Below, one piece after another: positions 33,793 through 51,670 of a stretch of DNA of 64,000 nt. This DNA comes from an uncultured Actinomycetes bacterium (GTDB lineage: Bacteria; Actinomycetota; Acidimicrobiia; Spongiisociales; DATADW01), in the NCBI GenBank assembly GCA_963824995.1, contig CAWGRK010000003.1, forward strand, positions 1 to 64,000. Direction: 5' to 3'. The position numbers and the translations under genes are program-made. Positions within the stretch are counted from its first letter, which is position 1, and each line of letters begins with the position of its first letter. Below the pieces are notes generated by a model. It was not told the DNA's origin, did no database searches, and worked only from the letters and a program-made list of their open reading frames with translations.

Positions 33793-34531
33793 TCACCTAG
33801 CCGCCATTCGCTCGGGCACCAGTTCGGTGAGGAGGTCGATCATCGTGTCGGCGTCCCTGATGGCGGCGGCACCGGGGTCGTTGTTGAAGTAGACGAAGAC
33901 TTCCTCGGCGTCACTTCTGGCGATGCGCTCCGCCCAAGGGCGGAGTCGGTCGCGCCCGTACTCCCACGAACCATCGAAATCGGCGCGGTGAAATCGCATG
34001 TAGAGCCAGCCACCGGTCGGTCTGTCTCGTGCGATCGGGCCCGGGTCGGCCCAGACCAATGCCGCCATGTGGCGGTCGAGCAGCTCGTGGACCTCGGGCA
34101 CGTCCCACGAGGGGTCGCGGAACTCGAGGGCGGGACGCATCCCGGAAGGGAGAGCCTCGAGCAGACCGGTCAGCCTGTCGATGTCGAGCTTGAAGGTGGG
34201 TGGGAGTTGGAAGAGCACGGGACCGAGCCTCGGGCCTAGCCCCAAGGCGCGCTCCCAGAGGCGTTGGACCGGCTCTCCGGGATCGACGAGTCGCCTCACG
34301 TGGGTCAGGTACCGGCTTGCCTTGACCGTGAAACAGAACCCCTCGGGAGTTTCCTCGCGCCAGCGCTCGAAGGTGCCCCGCTCGGGGAAGGCGGTAGAAG
34401 GTGTTGTTGACCTCGATGGTGGGGAACCGTCGAGAGCACACCTCGAGCCACCGCCGTTTGGGCAGGTCGTCTGGGTAGAAGGTCCCTCGCCAGTCGTCGT
34501 ATTGCCAGCCGCTGGTCCCGACCCGGATCAC
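33793..34531 (-). CDS. DUF72 domain protein, frameshift near 34385
   Basis: IRVGTSGW, EVNNTFY, LFQLPP, EFRDPSW, YFNND. Confidence 0.92.
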
Positions 34532-34552
34532 CCGGGTGATTCTGGCGTCGGA

Positions 34553-35290
34553 TCAAGTGGACTTGAAGGCTCTCCCTATCGCCCGGAACGGTGTGCCCAT
34601 CGTGTAGAGCACCGAGCGGATGGCGGCGTTGTGCTTGATGTACCCGGCGTAGCGCCACTGGCGGCGCTTGTCGAGGATCGTCGCCGCAAGCTCCGGCTCG
34701 GCAGTCGAACCGAAGTGGGCCGCCAGCGAGCGGAGAGTGTGCAACCAGATCTTGTCCTCCATCCGACCCGCACCCATCATGAAAGCAAGCTCATAGAGAG
34801 GGTCGCTGGGCCGGATGAGCACCTGCACCTGGGCGATCGTCCCGCCTTCGGCCTCGAACGAGCTGAAGGTCACCCACCCGGCGAACAGATGTCCCTCCGG
34901 GGTCATGAAGGTGAAGGAGACGTCGTCGGCATAGAGCACCATCACTCCGGTGGAGAGCGTCATGGGGCCCTGGACGGTGTTGATCGTGCCCACTTCGCCC
35001 GGTTTGATTCCGGCGATCGGGGCGTAGAACCGGTTGTACGAGGGCCAGAAGTCCCCGTAGTTCTCCTTCCAGACCGAGATCACACCGCTCGGGGTGACCT
35101 CGCCCACGTTCACCTTGTAGGTCTTCTGCCAAAGGCGGCCGAATCCCTGCAGGGGACCGGTGAGGCGGCGCCCTGCGACGTTGAGCGAAAGCGCTCCGGG
35201 CGAGGCAGGTCCCACCACTAGGCGATCGACTGGCTGTGCCCAGTTCTCCGTGTCGCTCCCGTTGGGCGACTGATCATTGACGGTCATCAT
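34553..35290 (-). CDS. Hypothetical protein (possible SRPBCC/DUF1990-like fold), putative output of the signalling locus
   Basis: GGAGG RBS; GPLQGFGRLWQKTY and FTFMTPEGHLFAGWVTF; own direct-repeat promoter. Confidence 0.75.
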   Translation of the reverse strand: MMTVNDQSPNGSDTENWAQPVDRLVVGPASPGALSLNVAGRRLTGPLQGFGRLWQKTYKVNVGEVTPSGVISVWKENYGDFWPSYNRFYAPIAGIKPGEVGTINTVQGPMTLSTGVMVLYADDVSFTFMTPEGHLFAGWVTFSSFEAEGGTIAQVQVLIRPSDPLYELAFMMGAGRMEDKIWLHTLRSLAAHFGSTAEPELAATILDKRRQWRYAGYIKHNAAIRSVLYTMGTPFRAIGRAFKST

Positions 35291-35315: not shown

Positions 35316-35348
35316 GTTCTACCGCGAGGTCGTCCGGACATCGTTACG
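35316..35348 (-). promoter_or_regulatory. SARP-type direct-repeat promoter (box 3)
   Basis: Minus strand CGTAACG-atgt-CCGGACG-N9-TAGAAC. Confidence 0.65.
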
Positions 35349-35396
35349 GACGCGGCACCGCCGGTCGGGAGACCGGCGGCGACGTCGTCAGACTGC

Positions 35397-35759
35397 TCAA
35401 CCGGCGGCGGCTACTGCCGACGCCTCGTCGGGATGGACGCCGATCGCCTCGTCGAGGCGGGTCAGCGAAAGAATCTGGCGGTAGTGCTCGTTGAGGCCAT
35501 AAGCGAGCAGCTGCTGTCCGGCACGGTTCGCCCGGATGAGCACGGTCACGAGCAGACCGATGCCGCCACTGTTCATGTACTGCAGCCCCTCGAAATTGAG
35601 GATCACGGCACGCACCCCATTGCCGCTGGCCTCGGCGAAGGCGTCCATGAGGACACCCTCGGAAAACGCCGTGACCTCGCCATCGATATCGATGACGCGG
35701 ACCCCCGGAGCCGCCTCTCTCACTTCCATTGCAACCTCTGCCTGTGGCATGTTCCCCAC
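35397..35759 (-). CDS. STAS domain anti-sigma factor antagonist
   Basis: IDIDGEV, LNFEGLQYMNSGGIG, LTRLD. Confidence 0.92.
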   Translation of the reverse strand: MGNMPQAEVAMEVREAAPGVRVIDIDGEVTAFSEGVLMDAFAEASGNGVRAVILNFEGLQYMNSGGIGLLVTVLIRANRAGQQLLAYGLNEHYRQILSLTRLDEAIGVHPDEASAVAAAG

Positions 35760-35766
35760 TCCCTAC

Positions 35767-36123
35767 CTAGGACGCCGCGTTTGCCGCCAGCGCCGCTTCC
35801 TCGTTCGGATATATGTGCACGAAATCGGCCAGCCGGGTGATCTGGAAGATCTCCCGATAGTGGTCACTCAGTCCGAAGGCCGACATGTCGCGCTGCTCGG
35901 CACGGGCCCGGGCGAGCACCCCCACGATCGCCGCGATCCCTGTGCTGTTGATGTACCCGACCTGGGTGAAGTCGAGCACGACGGAACTTGGCTCAAGGAC
36001 CGCCGCTTCTTCGTAGGCGGCGGCGAGGCGCTCCCGCGCGTTCCCGTCGAGGTCCCCTTCGAGTCGGATCAGCGCCCGTCTCTCCTCGTCGTGCACGGTC
36101 GCCTCAAAGGCGCTCGCCTGCAT
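35767..36123 (-). CDS. STAS domain anti-sigma factor antagonist
   Basis: LEGDLD, LDFTQVGYINSTGI, FQITRL. Confidence 0.92.
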   Translation of the reverse strand: MQASAFEATVHDEERRALIRLEGDLDGNARERLAAAYEEAAVLEPSSVVLDFTQVGYINSTGIAAIVGVLARARAEQRDMSAFGLSDHYREIFQITRLADFVHIYPNEEAALAANAAS

Positions 36124-37711
36124 CGCTTTCTCCTTCCAGGCTCATCTCGAGTTCGAGAGTGTGATGGCGATCTGTGGTGTGGACCCGAAGGTCGTCCACC
36201 ATGCTGCGGATCAGGAACAGGCCCCAACCGCGCGGCGTCTGCAATCCCTCCAGCTTGGCGTCGAGGTCGGGGGTCTCCGGGTCGGGAACCTCCCGCCCGC
36301 CGCCCTGGTCGATGATGGTGACCTTCACCGCTCCGACGTTGGCGCACACCTCTATCTCTACCGGCTTGTCCGGCTCGTTGCCGTTGCCATGCTCGATGGC
36401 ATTCATGGTCGCCTCGGCTACCGCCGTCTTCAATCTCTCCATGCGACCCGGCTCCATACCGAGCGGACTGACCCACTCGGCGACCCGATCCATGGCGACC
36501 CTTTCATTCCCGGCGATGCTGGGGAGCGTGAACTCGCCGAGTGACTGCCAGTCGCCGCCGTCGATGAAGGCGCGGGCGCTCTGCTCGGCCGACGAGCAGC
36601 GGCTGACCAGGACGAGCGTCACGTCGTCCTCCTGCTCCCAATCGGGCCCGGTCCAGGTGTCGAGCTCGGAGAGCACGACTCCGATGAGGCTCTCGCCCTC
36701 GGGACGCGATCCGATGGTGTCGATGACACGCGACACTCCGAGCATCTCGCGTTCCGGCGAGTGGGCTTCGGTGAGACCATCGCTGGAGAGCAACATCACG
36801 TCTCCCGTTTGCAGGGTCGCCTTTTTCTCCTCATAGGTCATCCCGGGCATCAGGCCGAGGGGCATCCCGGTCGCCCTGAGCTCGATCACACCGGTGTCAC
36901 TCCGCACATATGGAAGGACGTGGCCAGCATTCGCAAAGTCCAATTCGCCGGTGGCGGGGTCGAGAATGGCGAAGAGACAGGTCACGAACATCCCCTCGGG
37001 GATGTCGGCCACGAGGATCTCGTTGGCGCGGGCCAGGATCTCGCCTGGAGTCGCACCGGACGTGGCGTTGGCGCGGAGCACCGAACGACAGGTTGCCATC
37101 ACCAGCGCCGCCGGTACGCCCTTGTCGGTGACGTCGCCCACCACGACGCCGAAGCGGCCACCGTCGAGGGGGATGAAATCGTAGAAGTCGCCCCCGACCT
37201 CGCGGGCCGGCCGGTAATAAGCCTCGATCTCCCAACCGGGCAACGAGGGGAGCTGACGGGGCAGCAGTGTCTGCTGGATCAGCGAGGCGACCCGCAACTC
37301 GTGCTCGATCCGCTCCCTTTCCTTGGCCTCGGCCTGTTGGCGGCGGACGAGTTGGGCAACGCGGATCGCAGGCGCCACCTGGGAGGCGAGTCCTTCGAGA
37401 AGCTTGCGGTCGTCGGACGAATACGGCTGATCGGAGAGTCGGCGGCCAAGGTTGAGCATCCCGATGAGCTCACCCTGGCTGATGAGCGGGACCACCAATT
37501 CGACTCCGGCTTCGCGCAACTCTGCCACCGCCGGGGAGTCGAGGCTGAGCCGCTCCAACTCGACAGGCGCGCCCGCGGTCTGCAGATAGGGCAGCAGCGG
37601 ATCGTTGGGAGCGATATCGACATGGATCGACGCCGCCGGCGCCGTCTCCATTTCCTGCGGCTCGGACTCGGCTGCGGAACGACCCTTGCGGATGCGTGAC
37701 AGGACCACCAT
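36104..37711 (-). CDS. Soluble partial-GAF + SpoIIE/PP2C phosphatase + HATPase_c (RsbW-like) fusion
   Basis: VVPLISQGELIGMLNLG..YSSDDRKLLEGLASQVAPAI (GAF C-terminal part); VGGDFYD, GDVTDKG, SDGLTE, EDDVT (PP2C); EATMNAIEHG, DQGGG, RGWGLFLI (HATPase). Confidence 0.93.
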   Translation of the reverse strand: MVVLSRIRKGRSAAESEPQEMETAPAASIHVDIAPNDPLLPYLQTAGAPVELERLSLDSPAVAELREAGVELVVPLISQGELIGMLNLGRRLSDQPYSSDDRKLLEGLASQVAPAIRVAQLVRRQQAEAKERERIEHELRVASLIQQTLLPRQLPSLPGWEIEAYYRPAREVGGDFYDFIPLDGGRFGVVVGDVTDKGVPAALVMATCRSVLRANATSGATPGEILARANEILVADIPEGMFVTCLFAILDPATGELDFANAGHVLPYVRSDTGVIELRATGMPLGLMPGMTYEEKKATLQTGDVMLLSSDGLTEAHSPEREMLGVSRVIDTIGSRPEGESLIGVVLSELDTWTGPDWEQEDDVTLVLVSRCSSAEQSARAFIDGGDWQSLGEFTLPSIAGNERVAMDRVAEWVSPLGMEPGRMERLKTAVAEATMNAIEHGNGNEPDKPVEIEVCANVGAVKVTIIDQGGGREVPDPETPDLDAKLEGLQTPRGWGLFLIRSMVDDLRVHTTDRHHTLELEMSLEGESDAGERL

Positions 37712-37720
37712 GTTGCCTTT

Positions 37721-37753
37721 CTTCTACCCCGCCCTCGTGACGGCATCGTTACG
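37721..37753 (-). promoter_or_regulatory. SARP-type direct-repeat promoter (box 2)
   Basis: Minus strand CGTAACG-atgc-CGTCACG-N9-TAGAAG. Confidence 0.7.
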
Positions 37754-37867
37754 AATGACCCGTTCCATGCCTCTGAGGACGCGAAACATCAAACCTGAAA
37801 GCCGCTTGGCCCTGTATCGGCAGATAGAGCCGCCGCCTAAACGGTCGAAACGGGTGCGGAATGGTGA

Positions 37868-39037
37868 TCACCCGCCCTCCCCGCGTAGCCAGAGCCGGAC
37901 GGTCGCCGGGCGGAGCGTCCGTCCGACGACCCTCGAGAGATCGTCGGTGAGCCCGTCGAGATCCACCTCACTTCGCAACCGCGAGGCGAACTCGTCGACG
38001 ACGCGACCTGCGTCGTACCGGGACCGATCAAAGCGACGGTCGATGAAGCCTTGGACCCTGCGGCGAACCGGGGTGAACAAGGCTGCCGCCGCCAGCGTGG
38101 CACCTGCCACCGCCAACGGATTGTCTTGACCGACGACCGCACCCAGGGCCACGGCGAACCCGGCATAGACCGCCACCAAGACCGCTGCCACGATCGCATA
38201 TGAGACGGTGCGGCTGATGAGCCGATCGATGTCATAGAGGCGGTAACGGAGGATCGCGATGGCGACCGCTATCGGGAAGCCCAGACCGGCAACCACCCAA
38301 GGCACCAGCCCCACCAGGTCGCCCTCGAAACCCAACAATTCGGAGACGAGCATGAAGACCAAACCGAGGAGCGCCGCCACCAGGGCCAGCGCGACCCACT
38401 TCAGTTGACCGCGCTCCACGCCCGACGCCTTTCTGTACCGCCCGATGAGCGACAGAGCACCGAGCACGATCACCAGGACGAGGATCACCACGGCGACGGG
38501 GACGACCGACTCCAGCCACTCCGCTCCGTCGATGCCCATTGGGTTGTCGCCCACACCCGAAGGGGTCACGATGGTGGGTTTGAACAACGATGCCAGGGCG
38601 AAGACAACCAGAGCGGCGTAGCCAACCGCCACCACCGGTCGCCACCTCGACCCGGGCAAATGACCATCTGGGAAATAGAACGTCGCCGGGAAGGCGATGA
38701 GGCCGAAAGCGGGAGGCACCAGGATCGCACCGACGAGGGCCACCCATCCTGCCCAAGATGCGGTCTGCACCGGGAACCAGACAGATTCGGCGATGCTCTG
38801 CAGGTTGACGGCCAGTCCGAGCGCGGTGACTCCCGCCAGCCAGCACCAACCCAAGGGGTGTTCGGGCCGGCGAGCTGCCAGCAGCAACCCGACGATTGGG
38901 AACCCCATGAATGCGGACGCCCAAATCACGTCATCGATCACGACCTCGGCCCCGGAGTTGAACAGGAAGCCGAGGAGCCACGATGCGATCGCGACGACGA
39001 ACAGCAACCCCGCTGCCCACGGCGCCCACCTTTTCAT
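37868..39037 (-). CDS. Array membrane receptor paralog 13 (last), intact
   Basis: MKRWAPW...YRLYDIDRLISRT...DRRFDRSRYD...RLRSEVDLDGL...TLRPATVRLWLRGEGG*. Confidence 0.88.
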   Translation of the reverse strand: MKRWAPWAAGLLFVVAIASWLLGFLFNSGAEVVIDDVIWASAFMGFPIVGLLLAARRPEHPLGWCWLAGVTALGLAVNLQSIAESVWFPVQTASWAGWVALVGAILVPPAFGLIAFPATFYFPDGHLPGSRWRPVVAVGYAALVVFALASLFKPTIVTPSGVGDNPMGIDGAEWLESVVPVAVVILVLVIVLGALSLIGRYRKASGVERGQLKWVALALVAALLGLVFMLVSELLGFEGDLVGLVPWVVAGLGFPIAVAIAILRYRLYDIDRLISRTVSYAIVAAVLVAVYAGFAVALGAVVGQDNPLAVAGATLAAAALFTPVRRRVQGFIDRRFDRSRYDAGRVVDEFASRLRSEVDLDGLTDDLSRVVGRTLRPATVRLWLRGEGG

Positions 39038-39051
39038 GGGCTCTACATCCG

Positions 39052-39495
39052 TCACGGTGCGGTTCCATTGAGCCAGAGAGAAACCGACGCAGGCCGCAAC
39101 GTCTTGTTGACGACGGCAGTGAGGTCGGTCGGGAATATCAGCAGCAACACGAGCAACGCGCAGATGCTGACCACCCATCCCCAAGAGCCATACCAGGCGA
39201 TCAAGTGCTCCAACGGCCATGCGGTGGCAGACGCCAGCGATGAGAGGACATAGACCTGCCCCATCGACGTCAGGGTCTGCGCCACACCGGCCACGATGCA
39301 GAGCACACCGATACGGTTCCCTGGGCGGTGGGCGAGGATGATCGCCCCCACCACGGCGAACGCCGGCCAGGGAATAGCATCGGCGAGCGGCCGGAGATTG
39401 GTGAGCGTGGCCGACCGGTCGACCATGAATGCGACGATGGCGACCCAAGCCACGGCGAAGCCGGCGGCCACTCCCAACCACATTCGCCGCCTCAT
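39052..39495 (-). pseudogene. Array paralog 12: in-frame internal deletion relic
   Basis: N-terminal helices to LLIFPT joined directly to the family C-terminus DLTAVVNKTLRPASVSLWL. Confidence 0.8.
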
Positions 39496-40646
39496 CGGTT
39501 CTCCTCGCGCAGCCACAGGGCGACGCTTGCGGGCCGCAGCGTCTGTCCGACGACGGCGGTGAGGTCGGTGGCGAGACCGTCGAGATCAACCTCGTCCCGG
39601 AGCCGTGCACCAAAGCCGTCCACGATCACGCCGGCGTCATATCGCGAGCGGTCGAAGCGGCGGTCGACAAAGCCCTGCACCCGTCGCCGAACTGGCTGGA
39701 ACAACGCCGCTGCGGCCAACGTCGAGGCAGCCACAGCAAGCGGGTCGTTCGAGCCGAGAATGGCCTGCAATCCGAGGATCGAGCCGATGTAGACACCGGC
39801 CACCACGACCGACACCAGACCGTATGTCAGCGTGCGTCGGATCACCTTGTCGAAGTCGTAGAGGCGGTAGCGCAGCACGGCAACGGCGATCGAAGAGACC
39901 AAAACCAACACCACCAGCGCGAAAACCAGGTTGGCGTCCTGGGTGTAACCCAGTTCGTAGAGAACCATGTTGAGGACTATCGCCGTCACCGCAACGGCGA
40001 GGGCTGCGGCAAAGACCCTGATCTGTTGGCGCTCAATCCCCACAGACCGGCGGTACCGCTGGACCGCCCCAAACAGTGCCGCGCCCACCGCCACCAGCAC
40101 CAGCGCCATGCCTACCACTGCGGCCGGCTCGAAGAAGGGTGACAGTCTGGGAAAGCTGATCGGAAGGGCAATGGTGGTCGGGTCGGATGCCGTGCCCACT
40201 GTTACCGACTCCACGAAGGCGTTTCCGAAGATGAATAGCCCAAGCCCGGTCAGCGTCGCCGGCGCCACCCACCGATAGCGGGCGGAGGGCAGTCTGCCAT
40301 CGGGGAAGAAGAGCGGAAGGAATACGAGAAGCAGCACCAGTGAGGCCGCCCACAGCCAAATCCCGAGCCATGCGCTCCATCCCGCCAAGGGCCCTCCGGC
40401 CGCAGAAACGCCCTCTCCCATCACGCCGAGTGCGAAGGTGAGGCCGAAACCGGCGAGGATCAAGCCCACCGGATTCTCGGGGAGCCGCCAGACCAGATAG
40501 GCGCCGACGACGCTGGGAGAGGCGATCGCCAGCAGCCCCATTGCGTCGACCAGCCAACCGTCGCTCTGCTGGTTCTGAGTCTGCCCATACACGATGACGG
40601 CGACGCTTACCAGGGCGATGCCGATGCCCAACCAGCGCCGGATCAT
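39492..40646 (-). CDS. Array membrane receptor paralog 11, intact
   Basis: MIRRWLGIG...FFPDGRLP...YRLYDFD...TLRPASVALWLREENR*. Confidence 0.88.
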   Translation of the reverse strand: MIRRWLGIGIALVSVAVIVYGQTQNQQSDGWLVDAMGLLAIASPSVVGAYLVWRLPENPVGLILAGFGLTFALGVMGEGVSAAGGPLAGWSAWLGIWLWAASLVLLLVFLPLFFPDGRLPSARYRWVAPATLTGLGLFIFGNAFVESVTVGTASDPTTIALPISFPRLSPFFEPAAVVGMALVLVAVGAALFGAVQRYRRSVGIERQQIRVFAAALAVAVTAIVLNMVLYELGYTQDANLVFALVVLVLVSSIAVAVLRYRLYDFDKVIRRTLTYGLVSVVVAGVYIGSILGLQAILGSNDPLAVAASTLAAAALFQPVRRRVQGFVDRRFDRSRYDAGVIVDGFGARLRDEVDLDGLATDLTAVVGQTLRPASVALWLREENR

Positions 40647-40750
40647 GATGGTTCCTTCCGCAGCCATACCAGTGATAGCCCCGGCAGGAGGCCGAGTCCC
40701 GGGCGCCGGCCCACCCCCGCGGCGGCAGAAGTCGTTGGGGTAGAGCCCAT
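40643..40750 (-). pseudogene. Array unit 10: 35-aa mini-ORF relic
   Basis: MGSTPTTS...LSLVWLRKEPS*; TGATG overlap upstream and ATGA overlap downstream; C-terminus resembles the family SLWLRxE tail. Confidence 0.55.
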
Positions 40751-41879
40751 CAGCCCCTCTCCTTGACCCACAGCGAGACCGTCTCGGGGTGGAGCGTCCG
40801 CCGCACGACGCTGGTCACGTCGCCAACTAGGCCGTCGAGATCTATGCCTTGACGCAGCCGCGAGGAGAACGTCGTCCACTTCCTGGGCTGCGTCGTATCT
40901 CGCCCGATCGAAGCGTCGGTCGATGAAGGCCTGCACCCGGCGCCGCACCGGCGTGAAGAGCGCCGCCGAAGCAAGCGTTGCTCCCGCAACGGCCAGGGGG
41001 TTGCCCCGCCCCACCAGGGATCCGAGGGCCAGGATTGAACCCGCATACACCGCCACAAGGACCGCCGCCACTACCGCGTAGGAAACGGTGCGGCTGATCA
41101 GCTTGTCGATGTCGTAGAGCCGGTAGCGGAGGATGGCGACGCCGATGGCCGCTGGTATGGCGTTGAGGGCGATGAAGACGAGTGACACATCGAGGATGAC
41201 GCTCTCCGGGACCAACTGAGTGATCACCAGCATCACGATCACGAACGCGATCGCCGTCATCAACCATGGGTACTGGAGCCGCTCCACCCCGCTGCTGGCG
41301 CGCCACCTCCGTACCAGGCTGCCCAAGGCGACGAGGAGGAGCAACGGGATCACGAAGAACCCCTGGTCGAGCATGAAGGCGGTGAAACCGGAGAGACGTG
41401 TCGACTGCCAGCGGGCTCACCAGGCCGGTGATCTCCTTGGGGGCCGGGCTGACGAGCTCGGCAAAGACCACTGCACCCAAGACGACAAGTAGCGCCCTGC
41501 TCAGGAATCGATCCAAACCGGTGGCTGGTGCGCCATGCGGGAACCACACCGGAATGAGGGCTAGACCAACGAACGCCGAGTAACCGAGAGACGAGCTCAG
41601 CATTTCGACCCAAACGCTGACGATTCCGATCATCTCTCCGGCTAACAGCCCCTCGAGGAAGAAGGTCAGGCTCCATGCCAAGCCAATGAACAAAAGGAGC
41701 CGCCCCATCCGGTTCCCCGGTCTCTTCCACAGGATGAACGCACCGACGGTCGGAAATCCCACCCAGCTGAGCATCCACCAGCTGTCGGACAGGGTTATCG
41801 CCCCGATGATCAGGCCGGCGAGCGCCAGCAGGAACAGCAGCGTGAGCCCCAGCCGCGAGGCAACGGTTGCCTGCTTCAC
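40750..41879 (-). CDS. Array membrane receptor paralog 9, frameshifted
   Basis: VKQATVASRLG...KRPGNRMG...YRLYDIDKLISRT...TLHPETVSLWVKERG*. Confidence 0.82.
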
Positions 41880-43070
41880 GCGTCCTCCCGGAGCCAGACC
41901 GACATGGTCGTCGGGTTGCAGTGTCTGGCCCACGACACCCGAGAGATCGGAAGTGAGCCCCGGGAGGTCCACCTCCGCCCGGAGCCTCGAGGCAAAGCCG
42001 TCGACCACCCTCGCTGCGTCGTACCGCGATCTGTTGAAGCGCCGATCGATGAAGGACTGAACCCGGCGGCGCAACGGGTTGAACAATGCCGCCGCAGCCA
42101 GAGTGGCCCCTGCCACCGCCAGCGGATTGCCGCGGCCCACCAGCGATCCGAGAGCCAGGATGGAACCGGCGTACACCGCTACCAGGACGACGGCAATGAC
42201 CGCGTAGGAGACGGTGCGACTGATGAGCCGATCAATCTCATAGAGGCGATAGCGGAAGATGGCCACGCCGATGGCGAGCGGCAAGAGGCTGATGGCTACG
42301 GCGAAGGGGACGTCGGTTTCAACCGAGAGGTCCGCCAGCGACTGGAGGAGGTCCTCGGTCGACCGGTATCAGCGCGGTGACGAGGGCAGCGAATGTGAAC
42401 CACTTGAGCTGTAGCCGCTCGTCGCCCCGGGAGCGTCGGTATCGCACCACCACCGAGGACGCCGCAGCGAGGATCGAGCGCGGCAAGCAGAATGAAGAGC
42501 GCGCTGCCGATGGTGCTGTCCTCGACATCGGGCATGCCGGCAAAGCCGACTGGGTTGGGCAGCGAGAAGTCGGGCTCTCCGAGGTTCTCGGAGAGCGCCG
42601 CCATCACCGTTATCACCCCGGTGACAGCAATCCCGAGCCACAGAACCGGTCGCCACCGACGGCTCACCGGTGTGCCGTCCGGAAAGAGGAGCGGCGTAAA
42701 GAAGAGCACCAAGGCGAGCGTCGGGTACCAGTACCACTCGGCGAGCCAGGCCGCCGGTATCAATGCGGGCGCATCCACCATCCTCGCTTCGACCACATAT
42801 GCGACGTACTCACCAGCCAGGGCGCCGATCATCACCAGCAGGCCAATGGAAGAAAGTATCCAGCCCATCGCATTGCCAGGACGACGGAGGATGATCAGCA
42901 AGCCGGTGGCCATGTAGGCGGAGAAGGCCAGGAGGAGGCCGACATTGCCCGCAGGGTCGTCGGCGAACCGACCACTCCGTGCGTTGAACAGCTGGATCAG
43001 GAAGGCGCAGGTGACGTAGACCACCACCATGGCTACGACGACAAGCCATGAGTCGGGATCGGAGCTTCAC
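41876..43070 (-). CDS. Array membrane receptor paralog 8, frameshifted
   Basis: RRPGNAMGW, LLFPDG..RRWRP, ERLQLKW, YRLYEIDRLISRT; ends PTTMSVWLREDA* after a 1-nt correction. Confidence 0.82.
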
Positions 43071-43148
43071 GGCGCTTCCCGCAACCGTGTGAACCGACGA
43101 CTCACGGGTATACCACCACGGCGACTGCGAGCGGGTAGACGAACCGTC

Positions 43149-44387
43149 TCACGACTCCGCCTCCCGCACCCAGAGAGACATCGTGGCGGGGCGGAGTGTT
43201 TCCTCGATCACCCCGGTCAGGTCGCTGCGCAAGCCGTCCAGATCGGTCTCAGCTCGCAGTCGATAGGAGAACTGCTCCACAACCTGTTGGGCGTCATAGC
43301 GTGCACGATCGAATCGGCGGTCCACCCAACTCTGGACACGGCGTCGAACCGGGTTGAACAGCGCTGCGGCTGCCAGGGTGGCGCCCGCCACAGCCAACGG
43401 GTTGTCGCGACCGATGATGGTGCCCAAGGTGGTGACGCTCCCCAGGTAGACGAGCGCCAGTAGCACAGCCACGGCCGTATAAGTGAACGTACGGCGGACG
43501 AGTCGATCTATCTCATAGAGGCGATATCGGATCACAGCAACGGCGATGGCCACCGGGATAGCGGCGATCGAGATGACAAAGAGGAGGTCCAGCCACGCCG
43601 GCGTTTCCTCACCACCGGAGAAAGCGAACATGGAGGAGTAGACGGTGGCGAACATCCCGACGGCGTAGGCGAGCCACTTGATCTGCTGGCGTTCCTCCGC
43701 CCGGGCGCGGCGATAGCGGACGATGACCGCCGACGCGCTCCCCAGAGCCAGGATTACCAACCCCACCCCCCACACAGGCGAGAAGCCCCCCTCCCAGAAT
43801 TCACTGGTGATGAACCCGATCGGATTGGGCACCGACCAGATGGTTGTTTCCCCAACTACCAGCTCGAGCTCTGCGGAGAAGACGGTGAGGAGCGTGAAGA
43901 CCAGGAGCATCCCCGCCTCCAACGCCACCAGCCATCGCCAGCGTGGGGTGGGAACCGTGCCGGTTGGGAACACCAGGGGCAGATGGAAGATCGGAAAGAT
44001 GAACAGAACCCAGGACCAGCCCTGAAACCAGATCAGTAGCCAGACGCCGAGGTCAACGGTCGGCGGAGCCGTCAAGGACGAAAGTGGGATGGCGGTCAGA
44101 CCCGACAACGAGGCTCCCAGGGCCCAGACCAGTAGCAGCCAACCGATCGGGTTGCGGGGACGGGAGGCGAGGATGAGCATCGCCGCCGCTGCAGTGATTA
44201 ATGGAATGAGCACCAAGACCGGATCCCCATCCAATCGGTCCAACTCACCCTGGCGGATCGTGATGAGGATGTAGGACACCGAGATGGCGAGAACGATCAC
44301 AGCGATGCCCCAGGCCAGCGGTCGCCGCCAGCCGAAGCCCACGACCTCATGTTCCGCGGACGGTGCCCCTCGGTCCGGGTCGGCCAT
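43149..44387 (-). CDS. Array membrane receptor paralog 7, intact (412 aa)
   Basis: RPRNPIGW, FPTG..PRWRW, ERQQIKW, YRLYEIDRL, TLRPATMSLWVREAES*. Confidence 0.9.
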   Translation of the reverse strand: MADPDRGAPSAEHEVVGFGWRRPLAWGIAVIVLAISVSYILITIRQGELDRLDGDPVLVLIPLITAAAAMLILASRPRNPIGWLLLVWALGASLSGLTAIPLSSLTAPPTVDLGVWLLIWFQGWSWVLFIFPIFHLPLVFPTGTVPTPRWRWLVALEAGMLLVFTLLTVFSAELELVVGETTIWSVPNPIGFITSEFWEGGFSPVWGVGLVILALGSASAVIVRYRRARAEERQQIKWLAYAVGMFATVYSSMFAFSGGEETPAWLDLLFVISIAAIPVAIAVAVIRYRLYEIDRLVRRTFTYTAVAVLLALVYLGSVTTLGTIIGRDNPLAVAGATLAAAALFNPVRRRVQSWVDRRFDRARYDAQQVVEQFSYRLRAETDLDGLRSDLTGVIEETLRPATMSLWVREAES

Positions 44388-45561
44388 CAGGCATCACCTC
44401 TTGTCGATGCCAGCCACACCCCGGTGATGGTGGGACGAAGCGTGTGGTTTACAACTCCTTCCAGGTCGGCGGTGAGCGCATCCAGTTCCATCTGGTCGCG
44501 CAGGCGCGCCGAGAACCCGGCCACGACCTGCACACTGTCGTAGCGCGCCCTGTCGAAGCGGCGGTCCACCCACCCCTGGACCCGCCGTCGCAACCGGGGT
44601 GAAGAGCGCGGCCGCCGCCAGGGTGGCTCCCGCGACCGCCAACGGATTGTCCCGACCGACGACAGCGCCGAGCGCAGCTATCCCCCCGAGATACGCGCCG
44701 GCGACGATCACGGCCACGATCGCGTAGGCCAGAGTCCGAGTGATGAGCCGATCGATCTCGTACAGACCGAGGCGCGTCACAGCCACGAACAGCGTGCCGC
44801 CAATCGAGGATGACGAAGCCGATGTTGATGAAAGAGGACAGCAGGGGCGGTATGTCGCCGGGGATGGACACGGCGAAGAAGATCACCGCGACGACGCCGA
44901 CCCAGGCAAACCACTTGATCTGCTGGCGCTGCACCGTACCGGCGCGCCGAAAGCGGAAAATGAGCGAGGTGACCCCGATCAACGAGGCGACGGGGATGGC
45001 GTTGAAGACGATCGGTGCTAGCGCTTCTGCGATGGGCATGAAGCTGGCGATTCCCAGCGGGTTGTTCAAACCAGGTAATAGCTCTTCGTCCACCGGTCCC
45101 GAGGCAAAGGCGCTGATCAAGAACGTGAGCCCAACCAGCGTCCAGAGCAGCCATAACAGAGGGCGCCACCGAGGAGATGCCGGCCGACCGTCTGGATAGA
45201 GCGCTAGGAGGAAGGGGATCGAATAGGGCCCTGGGATCCACACCCAGAGGGAGCACCACCCCGCCACCAAGGTCACCCAATGATCGGGCCCCAAATTGGT
45301 CAGGCCATAGTGGGCGAGGTCCGAGAGCAGTGCTTCCAGTGGGAAAACCAGACCGGGTATGAGGGCCAGCCATGCCACTGCGTTGGTTGGCTGACGACGC
45401 GCGATGAGGAAGCCGAACGTCCCGAGGATGACGAATGCGAACAGTTCGACCGCTTCGAGCACCGGGCTGGCACCCGCCGATGGCGCATACGCGCCGTAGA
45501 CAACGGCTGCCAACCAGGAGACGATGCTCGCCAGCCAGACGACCAGGGCTGCCCGTCTCAC
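44387..45561 (-). CDS. Array membrane receptor paralog 6, frameshifted
   Basis: VRRAALVVWL...QPTNAVAW...YPDGRP...QRQQIKW...LYEIDRLITRT...TLRPTITGVWLASTRGDA*. Confidence 0.82.
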
Positions 45562-46735
45562 GAGCTCCTCTCCGACCAGCACCACCGACATCGTGGCCGG
45601 GCGCAGCGTCGAGCCGACGATTGTCGTGAGGTCAGTGGTCAATCCCTCCAGATCCACCTCGTCGCGTAGCCGGGCCGAAAACCCTTCCGCCACGCGGACA
45701 GCGTCGTAGCGGCCCCGGTCGAAGCGGCGATCCACCCAACGTTGCACCCGGCGGCGTAGCGGGTTGAACAACGCCGCCGCCGCCAGGGTCGCCCCGGCCA
45801 CCGCCAGCGGGTTCTCACTCCCGACGAGCGCTCCCAGCGCCGCCACCCCACCTAGGTACACCAGGGCGAGCAGCACGGCCACCACGGTGTAGCTCACGGT
45901 ACGACGGACGAGGCGGTCAATCTCGTAAAGGCGGTAGCGGAGCACCGCGATCCCGATGGCAATCGGGAAAACCAGCACGGCCAGAACGAAACTGGCATTC
46001 TCGACCGCATCCGGCACGTCGACACCGAAGGCCACCGCAATCTCCTGTGACACGATCGCGACCGCCACCAGCGCCATCGCGAACGTGAGCCAGGAGAGCT
46101 GCTTCCGTTCGACACCCGAGGCTTTGCGGAACCTGACCACCAGTGAGGCCGACGCCAAGACAACGCCAGCAAGGATGCCGAAGATGACCATTGTCTCCGC
46201 CAAAGAGCCCTCGGAATAGTCGGGCGCCATCCCCACGCCAAGCGGGTTCGAGATCACCCCGTTCAGGGTGGGCTGAACGAGCGCGAGCGCGGTGTGGCAC
46301 ACGACAACTCCCAATGCCCCCCACCCGACCCAGGCCCATCCGGGAGTGGGTGGCCGACCGGTCGGGAAGAGCAGCGGGAGGATGACCACGGTGCAGACGA
46401 CGGCAGCGATGAAGAAGATGTCGCTCACCAGGAATCCGGCGACTGCCAGGCCGGTCGATCCACCGGTCGAGGCTCGCTCGGCGATAGGACTCCCCACCGC
46501 GCTCGATGAGAGCGATCGCTCCGATCGCCACCATCACCCAGCCGACGCGGTTCCCGCCGGTCCGCCAGACGATGGTGGCTCCCACCAGTGACATGGCCAG
46601 GAAGGCTGCCGCCAGCGGGTCGAGGCCTTCCCAAGTATCACTTGTCCCCGCGGGCAAGAACCCGTAGGCGATTACCCCCGCCAGAGTCGCCCCGAAGAGA
46701 GACCACGCCAGGACCGTCTGCGTCCGAGGCTTCAT
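45558..46735 (-). CDS. Array membrane receptor paralog 5, frameshifted
   Basis: MKPRTQTVLAW...GGNRVGW...LLFPTGRP...ERKQLSW...YRLYEIDRL...TLRPATMSVVL. Confidence 0.82.
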
Positions 46736-47908
46736 GACCCCTCCCCGGCCAGCCACATCGATACGCCGGCCGGGCGGAGGGTCTCGCCCACAATTCGGGT
46801 GAGACCGCCCGTGAGTCCTTCGAGGTCCACCTCGTCGCGTAGCCGTTCCGAGAAAGCGGAAACTACCTGCGAAGTGTCGTAGCGGGTCCGATCGAATCGG
46901 CGATCCACCCACCCCTGAACCCGCCGGCGGACAGGAGTGAAAAGCGCTGCCGCTGCCAGAGTCGCACCTGCCACGGCCAATGGGTTATCGCTCCCGACAA
47001 CCGCTCCGAGGGCCGCCACTCCTCCCAGATCGACCGCGGCGAGGACCGCAGCAACCAATCCGTAGCTCACCGTCCGGCTTATCAACCGGTCGATGTCGTA
47101 CAGCCGATACCGGAATATTGCGACCGCCATTGCCGCAGGGAGCAATACACCGGCAACGGCCTCGTTTATCTGGTCGAGCACGCCAGGAAGGTCGATGGCC
47201 CAGGATGGGAGACTGAACACTGCCGCCAAGGCGAGCCACTTGATCTGCCTTCGCTCGACCCCGGAGGCTTTTCGGTAGCGGAGCAGCACGGACAGGACGC
47301 CCAGGGGCACTCCGGCAAAGAGCACTATCAAGAGCACGCTCCCCGCCGGCTCGAGAGCTTGAGCGGATGTCTTGCTCACCACGCCGCTCCATGTGGCCGG
47401 AAAAGTGCCGCTTTCAGCTGGGAGCATCCAGATTCGCCGCCGCCATCAGCCCCACGGCGATGGAAGTCGTCCAGGCCACGATTCGCCAGAATGTTGAGGA
47501 GAGTCTGCCGTCGGGGAAAAGGAGCAAGACGAGACCTATCAGCCATAACGAGGAGAGGAAGCCGTAGTCGCCGATCAGACCGAGCAGCCCCGTAGATAGC
47601 GGTCCCGTCTGCCCGGAGGCGAGCAGGAAAACCCCGTAGTCACGGCATGCCGATTGCATTATCTGGGCAAATCCCAGACCCAACCAAGCCCATCCGTACC
47701 CCTTGTCTGGGAAACGGGTCACCAGCAGCCAGCCGACTGCAGCAATAGCGAGCCCGCTCGGGTACGAGGCGAGCCGGGTCGCCCAAGGGGCGACGTCGGC
47801 GAGTGCCGGGAAGTTCCGGCTAGCCAAGGCCGACCAGATCCCTACCAGTGCAATTGCCACCGTCACCAGGGCCACGATCGTGGCGCTCGCGGCGAAGCGA
47901 CGTCTCAT
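46732..47908 (-). CDS. Array membrane receptor paralog 4, frameshifted
   Basis: MRRRFAASA...LLFPDGRL...ERRQIKW...YRLYDIDRL...TLRPAGVSMWLAGEGS*. Confidence 0.82.
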
Positions 47909-49065
47909 GTCCGCTCCCCCACAAGCACCAAGGAGACGGCGGCCGGTCGGAGGGTGTCGCCGACGAGTCGGGTGAGGTCTCCAGTGAGACCTTGGAGATC
48001 AACCTCGTCGCGGAGCCTCGCCGAGAACTCCTCGACGACCTTGTGGGCGTCGTATCGGGTTCGATCGAACCGACGGTCCACCCATTGCTGGATCCGGCGC
48101 CTCAACGGGTTGAACAGAGCGGCCGCAGCCAGAGTGGCGGCGGCAACTGCCAGCGGGTTGGTCCTTCCCAAAACTGTCCCCACCAGCGCAACGGACGCCA
48201 GGTAGACCCCGGCAAGCACCGCGGCCACCAACGTGTAGCCGGCCGTCCTCCTGATCAATCGATCGATGTCGTAGAGGTGGTAGCGGAAGACGGCAACGGC
48301 GATCGAGACCGGAAGCAGGACGAGGCCGAGGAAGAGGAGCTCGGCGATCACACTTCCCTGTGCGGTGAACTCGGCGACGATGCCCGCTGCGACGACCGCC
48401 ACCGCCAACAGGAACCACTTGACCTGGGCCTGCTCGACACCCCGTGAACGGCGAAATCGCACGATCACAGATCCGAGAGCCGCCACCGCCCCGAAGAGCA
48501 TCATTGGTACACCCACCGTGTTCAGCACAGCGAGGATCGGGCTCGTCGGCTGGAGTTCGTCGCCGGTGAAGAGCTGGACCGGCGACAACTCGAGGGCGGC
48601 AGGCAGCCCGGCAACTGCGACGAACACGAACCCCGTGACACCGACCCATGCGATCCAACGCCACCGGGGTGTCGGAGGCCGGCCGTTGGGGAACAGGAGC
48701 GGGAGCAGGCAGGTCAGGACGGTCACCCAGCCGAAGAAACCGACGCCGCCAAGCCAGTAGAAGATCTGCGGCCATGGTGCCGCCACCCCAGCCGTGGCCA
48801 GGGCCTCCATGATCTCGTCGGCTAAGACGTTGAGCGCGGCGAGAAGCCCAACGAGAGCAACCAGCCAACCGACAGGCTCCTCGGGACGGCGCGCGACCAG
48901 AACGGCTCCCGTCAGCGTGAACGAGACCAGCATCCAGCCAAAGACCAGCACCTCGGAGGAAAAGCCCTCATCCCCGGTGGCGAAGAGGACGAATGCCGCG
49001 ATCCCGCTCACGACCGAGATCCCCGCCATGACCAAGCCCCAGCGACGACGCACGGCGGGGCTCAC
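47905..49065 (-). CDS. Array membrane receptor paralog 3, intact (386 aa)
   Basis: RRPEEPVGW, LLFPNGRPPTPRWR, EQAQVKW, YHLYDIDRL, TLRPAAVSLVL. Confidence 0.9.
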   Translation of the reverse strand: MSPAVRRRWGLVMAGISVVSGIAAFVLFATGDEGFSSEVLVFGWMLVSFTLTGAVLVARRPEEPVGWLVALVGLLAALNVLADEIMEALATAGVAAPWPQIFYWLGGVGFFGWVTVLTCLLPLLFPNGRPPTPRWRWIAWVGVTGFVFVAVAGLPAALELSPVQLFTGDELQPTSPILAVLNTVGVPMMLFGAVAALGSVIVRFRRSRGVEQAQVKWFLLAVAVVAAGIVAEFTAQGSVIAELLFLGLVLLPVSIAVAVFRYHLYDIDRLIRRTAGYTLVAAVLAGVYLASVALVGTVLGRTNPLAVAAATLAAAALFNPLRRRIQQWVDRRFDRTRYDAHKVVEEFSARLRDEVDLQGLTGDLTRLVGDTLRPAAVSLVLVGERT

Positions 49066-50210
49066 CTGCTCGACTTCCCGAACAGGACCACACCGGCGGA
49101 AACCGGGCGAAGCGTGGCTGCCACGACCCCTGTCAGTCCCGTGGTCAGTCCGTCGAGATCGACCTCGTCACGCAGTCGAGCCGAAAACCCCTCGACGACT
49201 TGCCCCGTGTCGTAACGAGCCCGGTCGAAGCGGTGATCGACCCATGCCTGAACTCGGCGCCGAACCGGGTTGAACAAGGCCGCGGCGACCAATGTGGCGC
49301 CGGCTACTGCGAGCGGGCTTGTTCGCCCCACCAAAGCCCCGATGGCGGCGATGCCGCCGAGATACATCGCCGCAAGGAGCACGGCAACAAGTGTGTAGGT
49401 CACCGTCCGTCGGACCAACTGGCCAATGTCGTACAAGCGGTAGCGGAGCACGGCTATCCCAATCGCAACCGGGAAGACGGACACTGCGAACACGAAAGAG
49501 GAATTCCCAACCCAATCCGGTATCTCGAGACCCAAGATGGGCGCAAGCTCTTGGGCGACGAGCGTGACCGCGATCATTGCCACCGCGTACGTCAGCCAGG
49601 CGACCTGCTTGCGCTCGACGCCTGTAGAGTGCCGGAACCTGACCACGAGACTCGCCGCGGCGAGGACCATGCACGCCAGCAGGACGACGATCACGGCCGT
49701 CCCGATGGCCGAGTCCTCGGCTCCCGGGGCTCCGGCGACCCCGAGCGGGTTGGGGACCCCGTCTGCCACGGTGGGCTGGATCACTACGAGCACCGCGTTC
49801 ACCACTACGGCGCCCACGGCCGCCCACGCAACCCAACCCGAGCGGGGAGTCGGGAGGCGCCCATTAGGAAAGAGGAGGGGGAGGAACACGAAGGTCCCGG
49901 CGAGGGTGGCGAAGAACATCGAATCGGAAAACAGCGAACCGAGCACCAACGACCACTCGGGCACATCGCTCCGATCGGCGAGGATTCCTGTCAACGCGCT
50001 CGACACCGCGATCAACCCGATGCCGACCATGACCCATCCCACGGGGTTGCCCCCGGTGCGCGAAACGATCACCGCCCCAACGAGCGCCATGGCGAGGTAC
50101 GGGATCGAGAGCGAGTCGAAGGCGTGCTGAGCGATTTGGTTAATTACGACGCCGGCCAGGATCAAGACGAAGATCGACCACGCCACCACTGACTGGGTGC
50201 GCCGGTTCAT
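49062..50210 (-). CDS. Array membrane receptor paralog 2, intact (382 aa)
   Basis: GGNPVGW, LLFPNGRL, ERKQVAW, YRLYDIG, TLRPVSAGVVL. Confidence 0.9.
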   Translation of the reverse strand: MNRRTQSVVAWSIFVLILAGVVINQIAQHAFDSLSIPYLAMALVGAVIVSRTGGNPVGWVMVGIGLIAVSSALTGILADRSDVPEWSLVLGSLFSDSMFFATLAGTFVFLPLLFPNGRLPTPRSGWVAWAAVGAVVVNAVLVVIQPTVADGVPNPLGVAGAPGAEDSAIGTAVIVVLLACMVLAAASLVVRFRHSTGVERKQVAWLTYAVAMIAVTLVAQELAPILGLEIPDWVGNSSFVFAVSVFPVAIGIAVLRYRLYDIGQLVRRTVTYTLVAVLLAAMYLGGIAAIGALVGRTSPLAVAGATLVAAALFNPVRRRVQAWVDHRFDRARYDTGQVVEGFSARLRDEVDLDGLTTGLTGVVAATLRPVSAGVVLFGKSSR

Positions 50211-51355
50211 CGTTCATCCATGAGCCAGAGCGACGCCCCCTTCGGGCGGAGGGTGACGTTGACCACGCGCGTCAATTCCGAGCTGAGTCCTAGAAGGTCG
50301 ACCTCGTCGCGTAGCTTGGCGGTGAACCCCTCGACCACCCTCTGGGCGTCGTACTTCGACCGGGAGAAGCGCCGGTCAACCCACCCCTGCACCCGCCGTC
50401 GCACCGGTGTGAACAGCGCGGCAGCGGCGAGGGTGGCCGCCGCAACCGCAAGCGGGTTCTCACTCCCGACCAGAGCGCCCAAGGCGGCGACGCCACCGAG
50501 GTACACCGCCGCCAGCGCCACCACGACTACGGCGTAGGTGACGGTGCGATTGACTATCCGGTCTATCTCGTAGAGCCGATAGCGGAAGATTGCTATTCCG
50601 ATCGCGACGGGGAGCAACAGGTACGAAACGCCGTAGAGGATGCTCTCGAGGGTCTCGTTCAGCTCCAGCAGGTCGAGGGTTCCGACCACCACGATGAACA
50701 CGGCTGCGGCGTAGAGCAGCCACCCGATCTGCCGGCGCTCGAGCCCACCAGATCGGACAAATCGCACGACGAGGGAGATCACCGAGACCACCCCGACGAC
50801 GAGGAATCCGGTGAGGAGAGCAGGGCCGATCGCCAAACCGATATCGACCAGCAATGGTATGGCGATCGGGTTGGCGAAGTCGGGCTCCACCTGACCGAAG
50901 GCGCTCAGTATCACGAATAGCCCGCCGACCGCGACGGTGACCCTCACCACCCAACGCCAGCCAGGACTCGGGGGTCGGCCCGTCGGGTAGAGCAGGAACA
51001 GCAGTCGGGATCAGGGCCAATCCGGCGTTCCAACCCCAGAGGAGAACCAACGACCGATCACGGCGCCCGGTCGGCCGGTCGTCGCCCACATCACTCCTGC
51101 GACGCTGAGCCAGACAAAGAGCCCGTCGAGCAGAAGCAGCCAACCCACCGGATTGCCCCGCCGTATCACGATCAGGGATCCGACTGTGCTGAGGGCGAGA
51201 AAGGCGATCCCGATGTCAGTCCCCTCGAGGTCGGGGATCCTGTCCCGACAGTTGCATGACGGCAACGAGGGCAAAACAGGGACGACCAGCGCAAGGATCG
51301 CCATCGCCAGCACCCGGAGCGGGCGCGACGGAATAGCCCACTCCCTCTCCGTCAT
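50207..51355 (-). CDS. Array membrane receptor paralog 1 (first), frameshifted
   Basis: MTEREWAIPS...RGNPVGW...YPTGRP...ERRQIGW...YRLYEIDRIVNRT...TLRPKGASLWLMDER*. Confidence 0.82.
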
Positions 51356-51402: not shown

Positions 51403-51435
51403 AGGGTCCCCTACTCCCGTGACGGTGCCGTTACG
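51403..51435 (-). promoter_or_regulatory. SARP-type direct-repeat promoter (box 1) heading the receptor array
   Basis: Minus strand CGTAACG-gcac-CGTCACG-N9-GACCCT. Confidence 0.68.
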
Positions 51436-51670
51436 ACAATCAGGCCCAAGACCGATCGGCCCGGGCCCGTAATCGTTGAAATGTCGTTCTGCGAGCGCCG
51501 GACTCTCGCGTTGGTGCTCGAGCGGGGCGCTCCCAAGGCATCATCGGCACCGGGGACGAAGCAAATGAAGCGTCTAGTTGCCAGCACCGTCAGAGATCAA
51601 CCGAGGTCGACCCTCCTGGGCGGTGATCACGCCCCGAAATATCGAGCCATCGTTACGATCTCGGCTCGGG

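Follow-up and report, generated by a model that had tools for sequence, protein, structure and literature searches.

A signalling module of an uncultured actinomycete in which a GAF domain appears to be divided between membrane receptors and one soluble phosphatase-kinase

The window analysed here is a stretch of 64,000 nucleotides (nt) from an uncultured bacterium of the Actinomycetes (contig CAWGRK010000003.1 of assembly GCA_963824995.1), and our subject is a row of genes for membrane proteins, here called receptors, followed on the same strand by the gene for a soluble PP2C phosphatase that also carries a kinase domain. On the evidence of sequence profiles and structure models, each of these non-catalytic membrane proteins carries the opening part of a GAF domain at its end, and the rest of the domain stands at the start of a soluble enzyme, one per genome. 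The first-pass annotation of this DNA had suggested such a cut of the GAF domain between two genes, and the profiles of the two halves, the fused relatives and the model of one fused chain all agree with it. Based on this anatomy, we put forward a mechanism of many-to-one signalling, which we consider likely, in which the tails of the receptors would complete the GAF domain of the enzyme in trans.

The enzyme (Table 1) is made up of a basic leader (residues 1-32), a half-GAF (approximately residues 33-125), a linker helix, a SpoIIE-type PP2C domain (183-370) and an RsbW/SpoIIAB-like kinase domain (404-521). The half-GAF was originally read as starting, after a short linker, at IAPNDPLL, and this is precisely what follows the 32-residue leader; the phosphatase was also said to lack a membrane segment, and none was found by a hydropathy scan of its N-terminal half. 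The match to PF07228 scores 169.5 bits (cut-off 25), with the motifs GGDFYD, GDVTDKG, SDGLTE and EDDVT, which we take to be the metal-binding aspartate and catalytic motifs of PP2C. The kinase domain matches HATPase_c_2 at 75.2 bits (cut-off 27.4) and has the N, G1 and G2 boxes, and it falls below the cut-offs of the true anti-sigma equivalogs (TIGR01925, 46 versus 135; NF003144, 30.8 versus 145). The N-terminus of the enzyme covers only positions 53-133 of the 133 of Pfam GAF, coverage being partial as well for GAF_2 (91-135 of 136) and GAF_3 (76-127 of 129), and the C-terminal b4-b5-helix signature of GAF domains is present (35.9 bits, cut-off 22.4). A search of solved structures with the half-GAF profile returned weak matches only, all of them to C-terminal parts of GAF domains. 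Modelled alone, the half-GAF gives a predicted local distance difference test (pLDDT) value of 88, with helices at 14-21, 35-42 and 74-117, strands at 47-53 and 56-62 and a short bridge; residues 1-13 are unstructured, and helix a2 and strand b1 are absent. Its best structural matches are GAF domains, with Z of at most 6.4 and beginning about 40 residues into the domain, as on 3eea_B residues 52-162 (Z 6.2, root-mean-square deviation (rmsd) 3.4, 97 residues aligned). The Pfam coverage and the missing a2 and b1 thus uphold the earlier view that the enzyme N-terminus is not a whole GAF domain by itself.

Nor does the leader make up for what is missing. In the 120 listed of 2755 relatives the half-GAF starts at an N-terminal DPL motif in every case, within 4-50 residues (median 41), and the variable leader before this motif is therefore too short and too unconserved to supply the missing GAF elements. 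It is basic in 118 of the 120, with at least three arginine or lysine residues within the first 22, and on this composition it is a possible membrane tether. The leader (37616-37711 on the minus strand, and those of P0121-P0240) often has an amphipathic-looking start. Across the family, the part of the domain predicted on the enzyme is a short helix, b3, b4, b5 and the closing helix, followed by the linker helix, PP2C and usually the RsbW-like kinase. One relative, P0210, comes from a cultured organism, called Rubrobacter tropicus by its source. The enzyme described here is the sole half-GAF enzyme of this genome (85% complete), and every tail of the genome sits in the array upstream of it.

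Variants of the enzyme were also seen. In one family (L087:11148-12652, G406; proteins of 389 amino acids (aa)) the kinase domain is a gene separate from the half-GAF-PP2C, and in G486 (L111) a second, diverged stand-alone half-GAF-PP2C without kinase lies beside the usual enzyme. P0486 and P0504 begin with the half-GAF and continue into sequence resembling a NarL-type histidine kinase by its motif; they may be fragments or chimeras. A separate split pair occurs in G426 (L086:1520-2658), where a long open reading frame (ORF) with a diverged tail end overlaps, by ATGA, the next ORF, which has a basic leader, a partial GAF (Pfam GAF 46-133 of 133) and an EAL phosphodiesterase domain; it is one case, and a frameshift is possible.

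The receptors form an array on the minus strand, from 51355 to 37868, of 12 head-to-tail gene units of about 1.15-1.26 kb each, with overlapping stop and start codons at most junctions. Eleven sensors had been claimed; the count of units is 12, and eleven is the number that have a whole tail, the remaining unit (unit 11) being internally deleted. The description of the receptors as multi-pass proteins without a catalytic domain stands: 8-10 membrane segments were found by a hydropathy scan of the five intact units, and among the intact receptors tested none scored above the cut-off of a catalytic Pfam or NCBIfam family. Families of other kinds in these two databases gave no match above cut-off either, and the nearest Atlas clusters of the receptors are unnamed; HisKA_7TM (PF16927) gave a match in one of five receptor sequences, at 18.2 bits (cut-off 28.6), and an Atlas score of 0.82 that we treat as a lead only.

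All eleven full units share the conserved tail, as first noted. It extends about 65-70 residues beyond the last membrane helix, a measured length that replaces the earlier estimate of about 50, and its end, described before as SLWL, is a variable beta-type motif that also reads SLVL or GVVL. In the 2.9-Mb genome the only matches to a tail profile are the 12 units (E from 1e-36 to 2.5e-6), and judged from these sequences the conservation of the tail is not a product of chance. Searched by sequence against solved structures, the same profile has a single match, to a designed helical protein, which was taken as chance. Among 8000 scored candidates, 5580 match the C-terminal region. The five intact paralogs are on average 29% identical in the sensor part (24-33) and 64% in the tail (58-75), and the ratio of nonsynonymous to synonymous substitution rates against the orthologs in L001, a locus of the sister genome (three genes), is 0.13-0.31 in the sensor part and 0.03-0.17 in the tail. 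Four other genomes of the genus have the paralog types in much the same order, apart from a few gains and losses. By these comparisons the units are distinct, maintained genes and not decaying copies.

The reading frame is unbroken in five of the 12 units (2, 3, 7, 10 and 12; 382-412 aa), and one-base shifts occur in units 1, 4, 5, 6, 8 and 9. At 41403, 41912, 42360/42361, 44592 and 51006, contigs assembled from the short reads of two other runs are longer or shorter by one base, intact relatives (79-100% identical) exist of units 4, 6, 8 and 9, and lysS in the same window is likewise spread over two frames; the frame breaks of the six units are therefore most likely errors of the long-read assembly. 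Its indel rate is visible in lysS (28944-30156, minus strand), in the DUF72 gene (33793-34550, minus strand) and in the AfsR-like regulator described below (51578-54513, plus strand), each lying in two frames. Relative to L001, unit 11 retains three N-terminal helices and the last third of the tail; its deletion joins two sites that share a short sequence stretch and keeps the frame, and may be genuine or an artefact of assembly. An ORF of 35 codons (40643-40750, minus strand) lies between units 9 and 10 and is coupled to both; it has the tail-like C-terminal end SLVWLRKEPS and, to judge from that end, may be what is left of a 13th unit after a nearly complete deletion.

Relatives in which both are parts of one chain bear on the relation between tail and half-GAF. 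Such fused membrane-GAF-PP2C homologs had been predicted, and they exist with both pieces in one frame: the longer relatives include the membrane-GAF-SpoIIE chains P0006, P0007 and P0098 (among 120 listed of 187), and genome searches added L015, L016, L079-L082, L084 and L085. The same membrane module is also found in cis with histidine kinases and cyclases. In the fused homologs the tail and the N-terminus of the phosphatase are contiguous and non-overlapping, as expected by the first-pass annotation, with a linker of variable length between them (alignment A4). The profiles of tail and half-GAF show no likeness when compared (probability 0.3%), and in P0029, a fused chain absent from profile building, the tail (345-409) and the half-GAF (415-544) follow in order. 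A weak mapping, again in order, is seen on the PrsK model TIGR02916, at 130-345 and 405-462 (E 3e-4 and 9e-4).

The model of the natural fused chain L016 (pLDDT 94) places the tail as helix 2-33, helix 39-53 and strand 59-63, which bears out the assignment of the tail to the first GAF part, namely the long helix, a2 and b1. This model matches whole GAF domains, with 3jab_B at Z 14.0 (rmsd 3.3, 150 aligned) and 3eea_B residues 12-162 at Z 12.3 (rmsd 3.0, 123 aligned), and 71 structure chains match at Z of at least 8; strand b2 is assigned in neither model. In GAF domains b1 lies beside b5. From this strand order, and with b2 absent, b1 would be an edge strand next to b5 in the modelled domain, so that addition of the strand in trans is plausible. 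In the split forms (35 tails and 27 halves), as in eight fused chains, the core positions of a2, b1, b5 and the closing helix hold hydrophobic residues in 94-100% of cases.

If the two parts belong together, tails and half-GAF enzymes should be found in the same genomes, and the co-occurrence put forward at first is indeed complete among the genomes with a strong half-GAF match. Among 41 relatives, tails occur in 12, identical to the 12 that have a half-GAF match below E 1e-17; ten have stand-alone enzymes and two have fused forms only, six come from one genus, and G010 and G021 are unpublished. In the Actinomycetota, 56 of 401 genomes have a strong match to the enzyme N-terminus (E 6e-35 or better), and tails are present in 56 of 56 (seven of these genomes are unpublished, which leaves 49 without them), with at least two in 54, a median of nine, and at least 15 in 15. 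Tails occur in 64 of the 401 genomes; the seven without an enzyme match comprise three with a single weak tail and four with strong tails. At the 29 enzyme loci inspected among the 56 genomes, the tail is in frame with the enzyme in none, and in 21 of them (five unpublished) the 1.5 kb examined include the end of an upstream tail-only gene, 189-605 nt away from the half-GAF. In a second phylum, assigned as Chloroflexota by the title of L004, the stand-alone enzyme is found in 12 of 251 genomes with tails (1-15) in all 12, and fused forms in five more genomes; a fused longer form is present in G440. Fused-only genomes mostly have no extra tails (G008, G024, G569, G585, G601 and G440); G515, also fused, has one extra tail, plus a second half-GAF match cut by a contig end. 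The position of the receptors relative to the enzyme varies, being upstream, downstream or on many contigs, and the split is at the same place in both phyla and in short-read assemblies as well. Among the best 150 cluster representatives, 92 have the half-GAF at the N-terminus, 20 have it fused to a tail, 26 are unrelated multi-GAF repeats, and 12 have it later in the chain without a tail, most of these resembling mis-called starts.

The history of fusion and fission was followed in a quickly built, midpoint-rooted tree of 69 rows comprising half-GAF and PP2C (L083 is labelled split though cut at a contig start), which demands at least three changes between the fused and the split state and places P0006, P0007 and L082 inside a 98%-supported group together with four split enzymes. 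Ancestry of all the fused forms finds no support: a single clade of them (16 fused rows versus 45 others) was rejected (approximately unbiased test, p-AU 0.003), in a test that dropped eight rows (four long or odd branches, both outgroups among or beside these, L083 and two near-copies) and whose group was chosen after the first tree. Splitting and rejoining at this one linker seem to be repeated events, their direction depending on the root, and by their placement some fused forms look like re-fusions rather than ancestors.

Several observations weigh against docking in trans. The alignment used for L016 also contained split rows and a single chain was modelled, so that the model speaks for compatibility of the two parts and not for their docking as separate chains. 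The lone half-GAF obtains a confident model, and hence it may be stable alone or as a homodimer. Four genomes (G246, G362, G415 and G417) have strong tails and neither a half-GAF enzyme nor a STAS2 match in profile searches; they are 88-98% complete and fragmented into 110-380 contigs, and some of their tails carry stops while others are intact. In G640 there is one weak tail-only gene and no enzyme match. Related genomes inherit the module as a block, so that the counts given above overstate independence, and the fused forms are scattered, with some nested among split ones, so that part of the fusion evidence may reflect the fusing of neighbouring genes.

The confident model of the lone half would also suit an arrangement in which receptors and enzyme cooperate without forming one fold, with tails pairing with tails, half-GAFs with half-GAFs, and contact made through other surfaces or an adaptor such as a STAS or DUF1990-like protein. 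GAF and PP2C proteins usually dimerise (PMC12143880), the module holds conserved candidates for an adaptor, and the co-occurrence would fit equally well. We nevertheless regard this arrangement as unlikely: the cut coincides with the variable linker of the fused relatives, fused and split forms share their conserved residues on either side, and a tail of 65 residues with one strand has no sheet of its own. A further alternative denies any physical link, the split being a relic of gene fission or an artefact of frameshift or read-through and the co-occurrence a matter of one inherited block. The many one-base errors of this assembly, a long-read protein (P0002) that runs receptors and enzyme together via frameshifts and the genomes that retain tails without the enzyme can be counted for it; yet the enzyme has its own promoter box, its own start 157 nt after the stop of the last receptor and a conserved basic leader, two phyla, and short-read assemblies too, share one split site, several genomes have receptors downstream of the enzyme or spread over many contigs, and both halves are under purifying selection, which leaves this the least probable of the readings considered. 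That translation continues from the last receptor into the enzyme by read-through or frameshifting, taken as a candidate by itself, was rejected on account of the 157-nt gap, the separate promoter and start, and the downstream or dispersed receptors of other genomes.

In the mechanism that we favour, completion of the GAF domain in trans, the tail of a receptor would dock on the enzyme in such a way that strand b1 joins the sheet at its edge and a2 packs against the closing helix. Docking would complete the GAF fold and hold the enzyme at the membrane, aided by the basic leader. The long helix of the tail would form the connection between the closing GAF helix, which is predicted to run into the linker before PP2C, and the membrane helix that comes last in the receptor. 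A signal at the variable membrane part could then shift the tail helix, such that the linker becomes ordered or disordered and the dimerisation of PP2C changes. This linker step is modelled on the binding of RsbT to RsbU, because partner binding there orders the linker: in PMC12143880, the linker of RsbU is described as ordered by its partner into a coiled coil, which dimerises and activates the phosphatase, and the authors extend the mechanism to GAF-containing phosphatases. Finally, the balance of phosphatase and kinase activity on one chain would set the phosphorylation of two STAS proteins. As to the docking itself, we lean, by a narrow preference, to a stable form in which receptors share a limited pool of enzyme over one that is gated by the signal.

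The tails might instead dock as brakes or tethers, with the signal consisting in release (by proteolysis or competition of paralogs), or the completed GAF might itself be a ligand sensor. The near-invariant polar residues on the split enzyme (E116, N122, Q130, D135 and R137 in L016 numbering) could form a site for a ligand or partner, and proteins of the partner-switch family often act by sequestration, as RsbS does with RsbT. Against this, the membrane parts are diverse within the genome yet their orthologs are under purifying selection, as expected for sensors of different inputs, and the membrane module fused in cis to histidine kinases and cyclases acts through the chain; we consider a brake, tether or ligand sensor very unlikely.

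Table 1. Positions of the module and its regulatory elements in the 64,000-nt window.
Feature	Position	Strand	Remarks
Receptor unit 1	50207..51355	-	Frameshifted in assembly; full tail
Receptor unit 2	49062..50210	-	382 aa, intact
Receptor unit 3	47905..49065	-	386 aa, intact
Receptor unit 4	46732..47908	-	One frameshift near 47430; full tail
Receptor unit 5	45560..46735	-	Frameshift near 46500, stop out of frame, reads into unit 6; full tail
Receptor unit 6	44387..45561	-	Two frameshifts; full tail
Receptor unit 7	43149..44387	-	412 aa, intact
Receptor unit 8	41876..43152	-	Several frameshifts; tail complete across a shift
Receptor unit 9	40750..41879	-	Two frameshifts; tail complete across a shift
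Receptor unit 10	39492..40646	-	384 aa, intact
Receptor unit 11	39052..39495	-	In-frame internal deletion of ~690 nt
Receptor unit 12	37868..39037	-	389 aa, intact; tail (predicted GAF long helix, a2, b1) at 38074-37871
Soluble enzyme	36104..37711	-	535 aa; from Pfam, model and motifs
STAS anti-anti-sigma-like protein 1	35767..36123	-	Ser60 in INSTG; start overlaps end of enzyme gene
STAS protein 2	35397..35750	-	Ser61 in MNSGG
Conserved 245-aa module protein	34553..35290	-	DUF1990-like by language-model features (lead only)
Promoter of SARP geometry	37721..37754	-	Two repeats 11 bp apart, then TAGAAG
Second promoter of SARP geometry	35316..35349	-	Top-scoring site of genome
Heptamer repeat upstream of array	51418..51435	-	11-bp period (CGTAACG-n4-CGTCACG); no TA of -10 box at usual distance
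AfsR-like regulator (BTAD, AAA/NOD, TPR)	51578..54513	+	Divergent from array; frameshifted near 52090-52260; start uncertain

The genes beside the enzyme point to a partner switch under its own transcriptional control. Two STAS proteins have the phosphorylatable serine of the sigma-B/F partner switches. No SigBFG match was found at the module in any of the five genomes searched, and in G404 there was none above cut-off anywhere; in this genome (G000) the best SigB/F-like match is on C1, beside its own STAS pair and PP2C. That locus (C1:217792-222106), with a frameshifted SigB/F-like gene, two STAS genes and PP2C, is a separate partner-switch cluster.

Upstream of the enzyme, GTAACG is present in 39 of 41 genes from both phyla, and the strict pattern YCGTAACG-n5-nnnACR-n9-TA in 32 of 41 upstream regions, the TA being at offset 26 in 32 of 39. 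GTAAC is found in 31 of 32 regions, where 500 shuffles gave 3.7 on average and at most 10. The weight matrix gives two sites above 14 bits in this genome, one before the enzyme (37754) and one before the 245-aa gene (35349). SARP promoters are characterised by direct repeats spaced by 11 bp and next to the -10 box (PMC10936776). The gene divergent from the array encodes a regulator with the AfsR-type set of BTAD, NOD and TPR domains; its stretch 51578-52258, in which an OmpR-type DNA-binding domain was sought, has no Pfam or NCBIfam match and is conserved in relatives of about 1000 aa. A close match to the N-terminus of the regulator is found in 17 of the 401 genomes (two unpublished), all among the 56 with the enzyme, and an AfsR-like regulator also flanks the module in L088-L091. 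We count the regulator and the SARP-type promoter box as parts of the module; the repeat box is probably the site from which the enzyme operon is driven by this regulator. The 245-aa gene has a SARP-type promoter of its own, occurs as a tandem duplicate in L087 and L089, and may be a main target of the module. Elsewhere in the window, a second BTAD protein followed by a protein kinase-nSTAND1 ORF (10887-15291, minus strand) is probably one frameshifted gene, and a Clp N-terminal domain and the dihydroneopterin aldolase FolB share one open frame (55359-56222, minus strand) inside a folate cluster, through either a fusion or a lost stop. No Rfam family and no tRNA were found in the whole window, and among the sequencing runs no RNA run was listed as a carrier.

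If docking is real, the module would give bacteria a third route by which many sensors reach one output, the other two being chemoreceptor arrays and the stressosome; a domain encoded in two genes would serve as the plug, and the duplication of one gene would give the genome a new input. The arrangement is a common one among soil bacteria. It would also account for a very large family of hypothetical proteins, present in about 14% of the sampled Actinomycetota and 5% of the sampled Chloroflexota genomes. A wider reading, that this is a new class of signal transduction in which up to 15 or more non-catalytic receptors per genome plug interchangeably into one effector and complete its GAF fold, the socket is reusable with other outputs (the EAL protein of G426) and a sigma-less loop is closed by STAS proteins acting on the AfsR-like regulator, which in turn transcribes the enzyme operon, is possible, though in our estimate it falls somewhat short of an even chance. 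Full-text searches found no description of a split-GAF receptor system, most subscription journals lying outside their coverage.

The closest known proteins are the uncharacterised single-chain membrane-GAF-SpoIIE(-HATPase_c_2) phosphatases and membrane-GAF-HisKA_3 kinases of Actinomycetota and Chloroflexota, which have the same module, tail, reduced GAF and order of output domains. Their GAF is uncut, whereas here it is cut internally and one output chain would serve up to 15 or more input chains per genome; the PrsK kinase described by TIGR02916 is a distant relative of the membrane-GAF arrangement. The RsbT-RsbU-RsbV-RsbW-sigma B switch of Bacillus subtilis likewise has (PMC12143880) a PPM phosphatase whose N-terminal domain and helical linker are under a partner in trans, a STAS substrate with a conserved serine and an RsbW-like kinase. 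In contrast to RsbT, the partner proposed here is the tail of a membrane protein and part of the enzyme's own domain, not a folded kinase; and unlike the sigma B switch, phosphatase and kinase are one chain, there are two STAS proteins and the locus has no sigma factor. Rv1364c of Mycobacterium tuberculosis and OsaC of Streptomyces are sensor-PP2C chains, the former with a fused anti-sigma-type kinase, as named in PMC12143880. Their PAS and GAF sensor domains are whole and in cis, unlike the split GAF described here. Chemoreceptor arrays with CheA and CheW, and the RsbR paralogs of the stressosome, also connect many non-catalytic sensors to one soluble enzyme, through adaptors or lattices of whole domains; no such signalling domain was found on the present receptors with Pfam. 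For the Streptomyces AfsR/SARP promoters, PMC10936776 describes the BTAD-NOD-TPR architecture shared with our regulator and direct repeats that recur every 11 bp immediately before the -10 box. Here the repeat sequence is another, the regulator scores far below the AfsR family cut-off, and the target is a signalling operon. One chain completes the fold of another in the donor-strand complementation of chaperone-usher pili and in the proposed intermolecular PH domains of animals, which are a structural polymer or eukaryotic and not interchangeable bacterial receptors sharing one enzyme. The output half of the module, with its PP2C, kinase and STAS proteins, is of the known partner-switch kind, and it is in the wiring of the input that the novelty lies.

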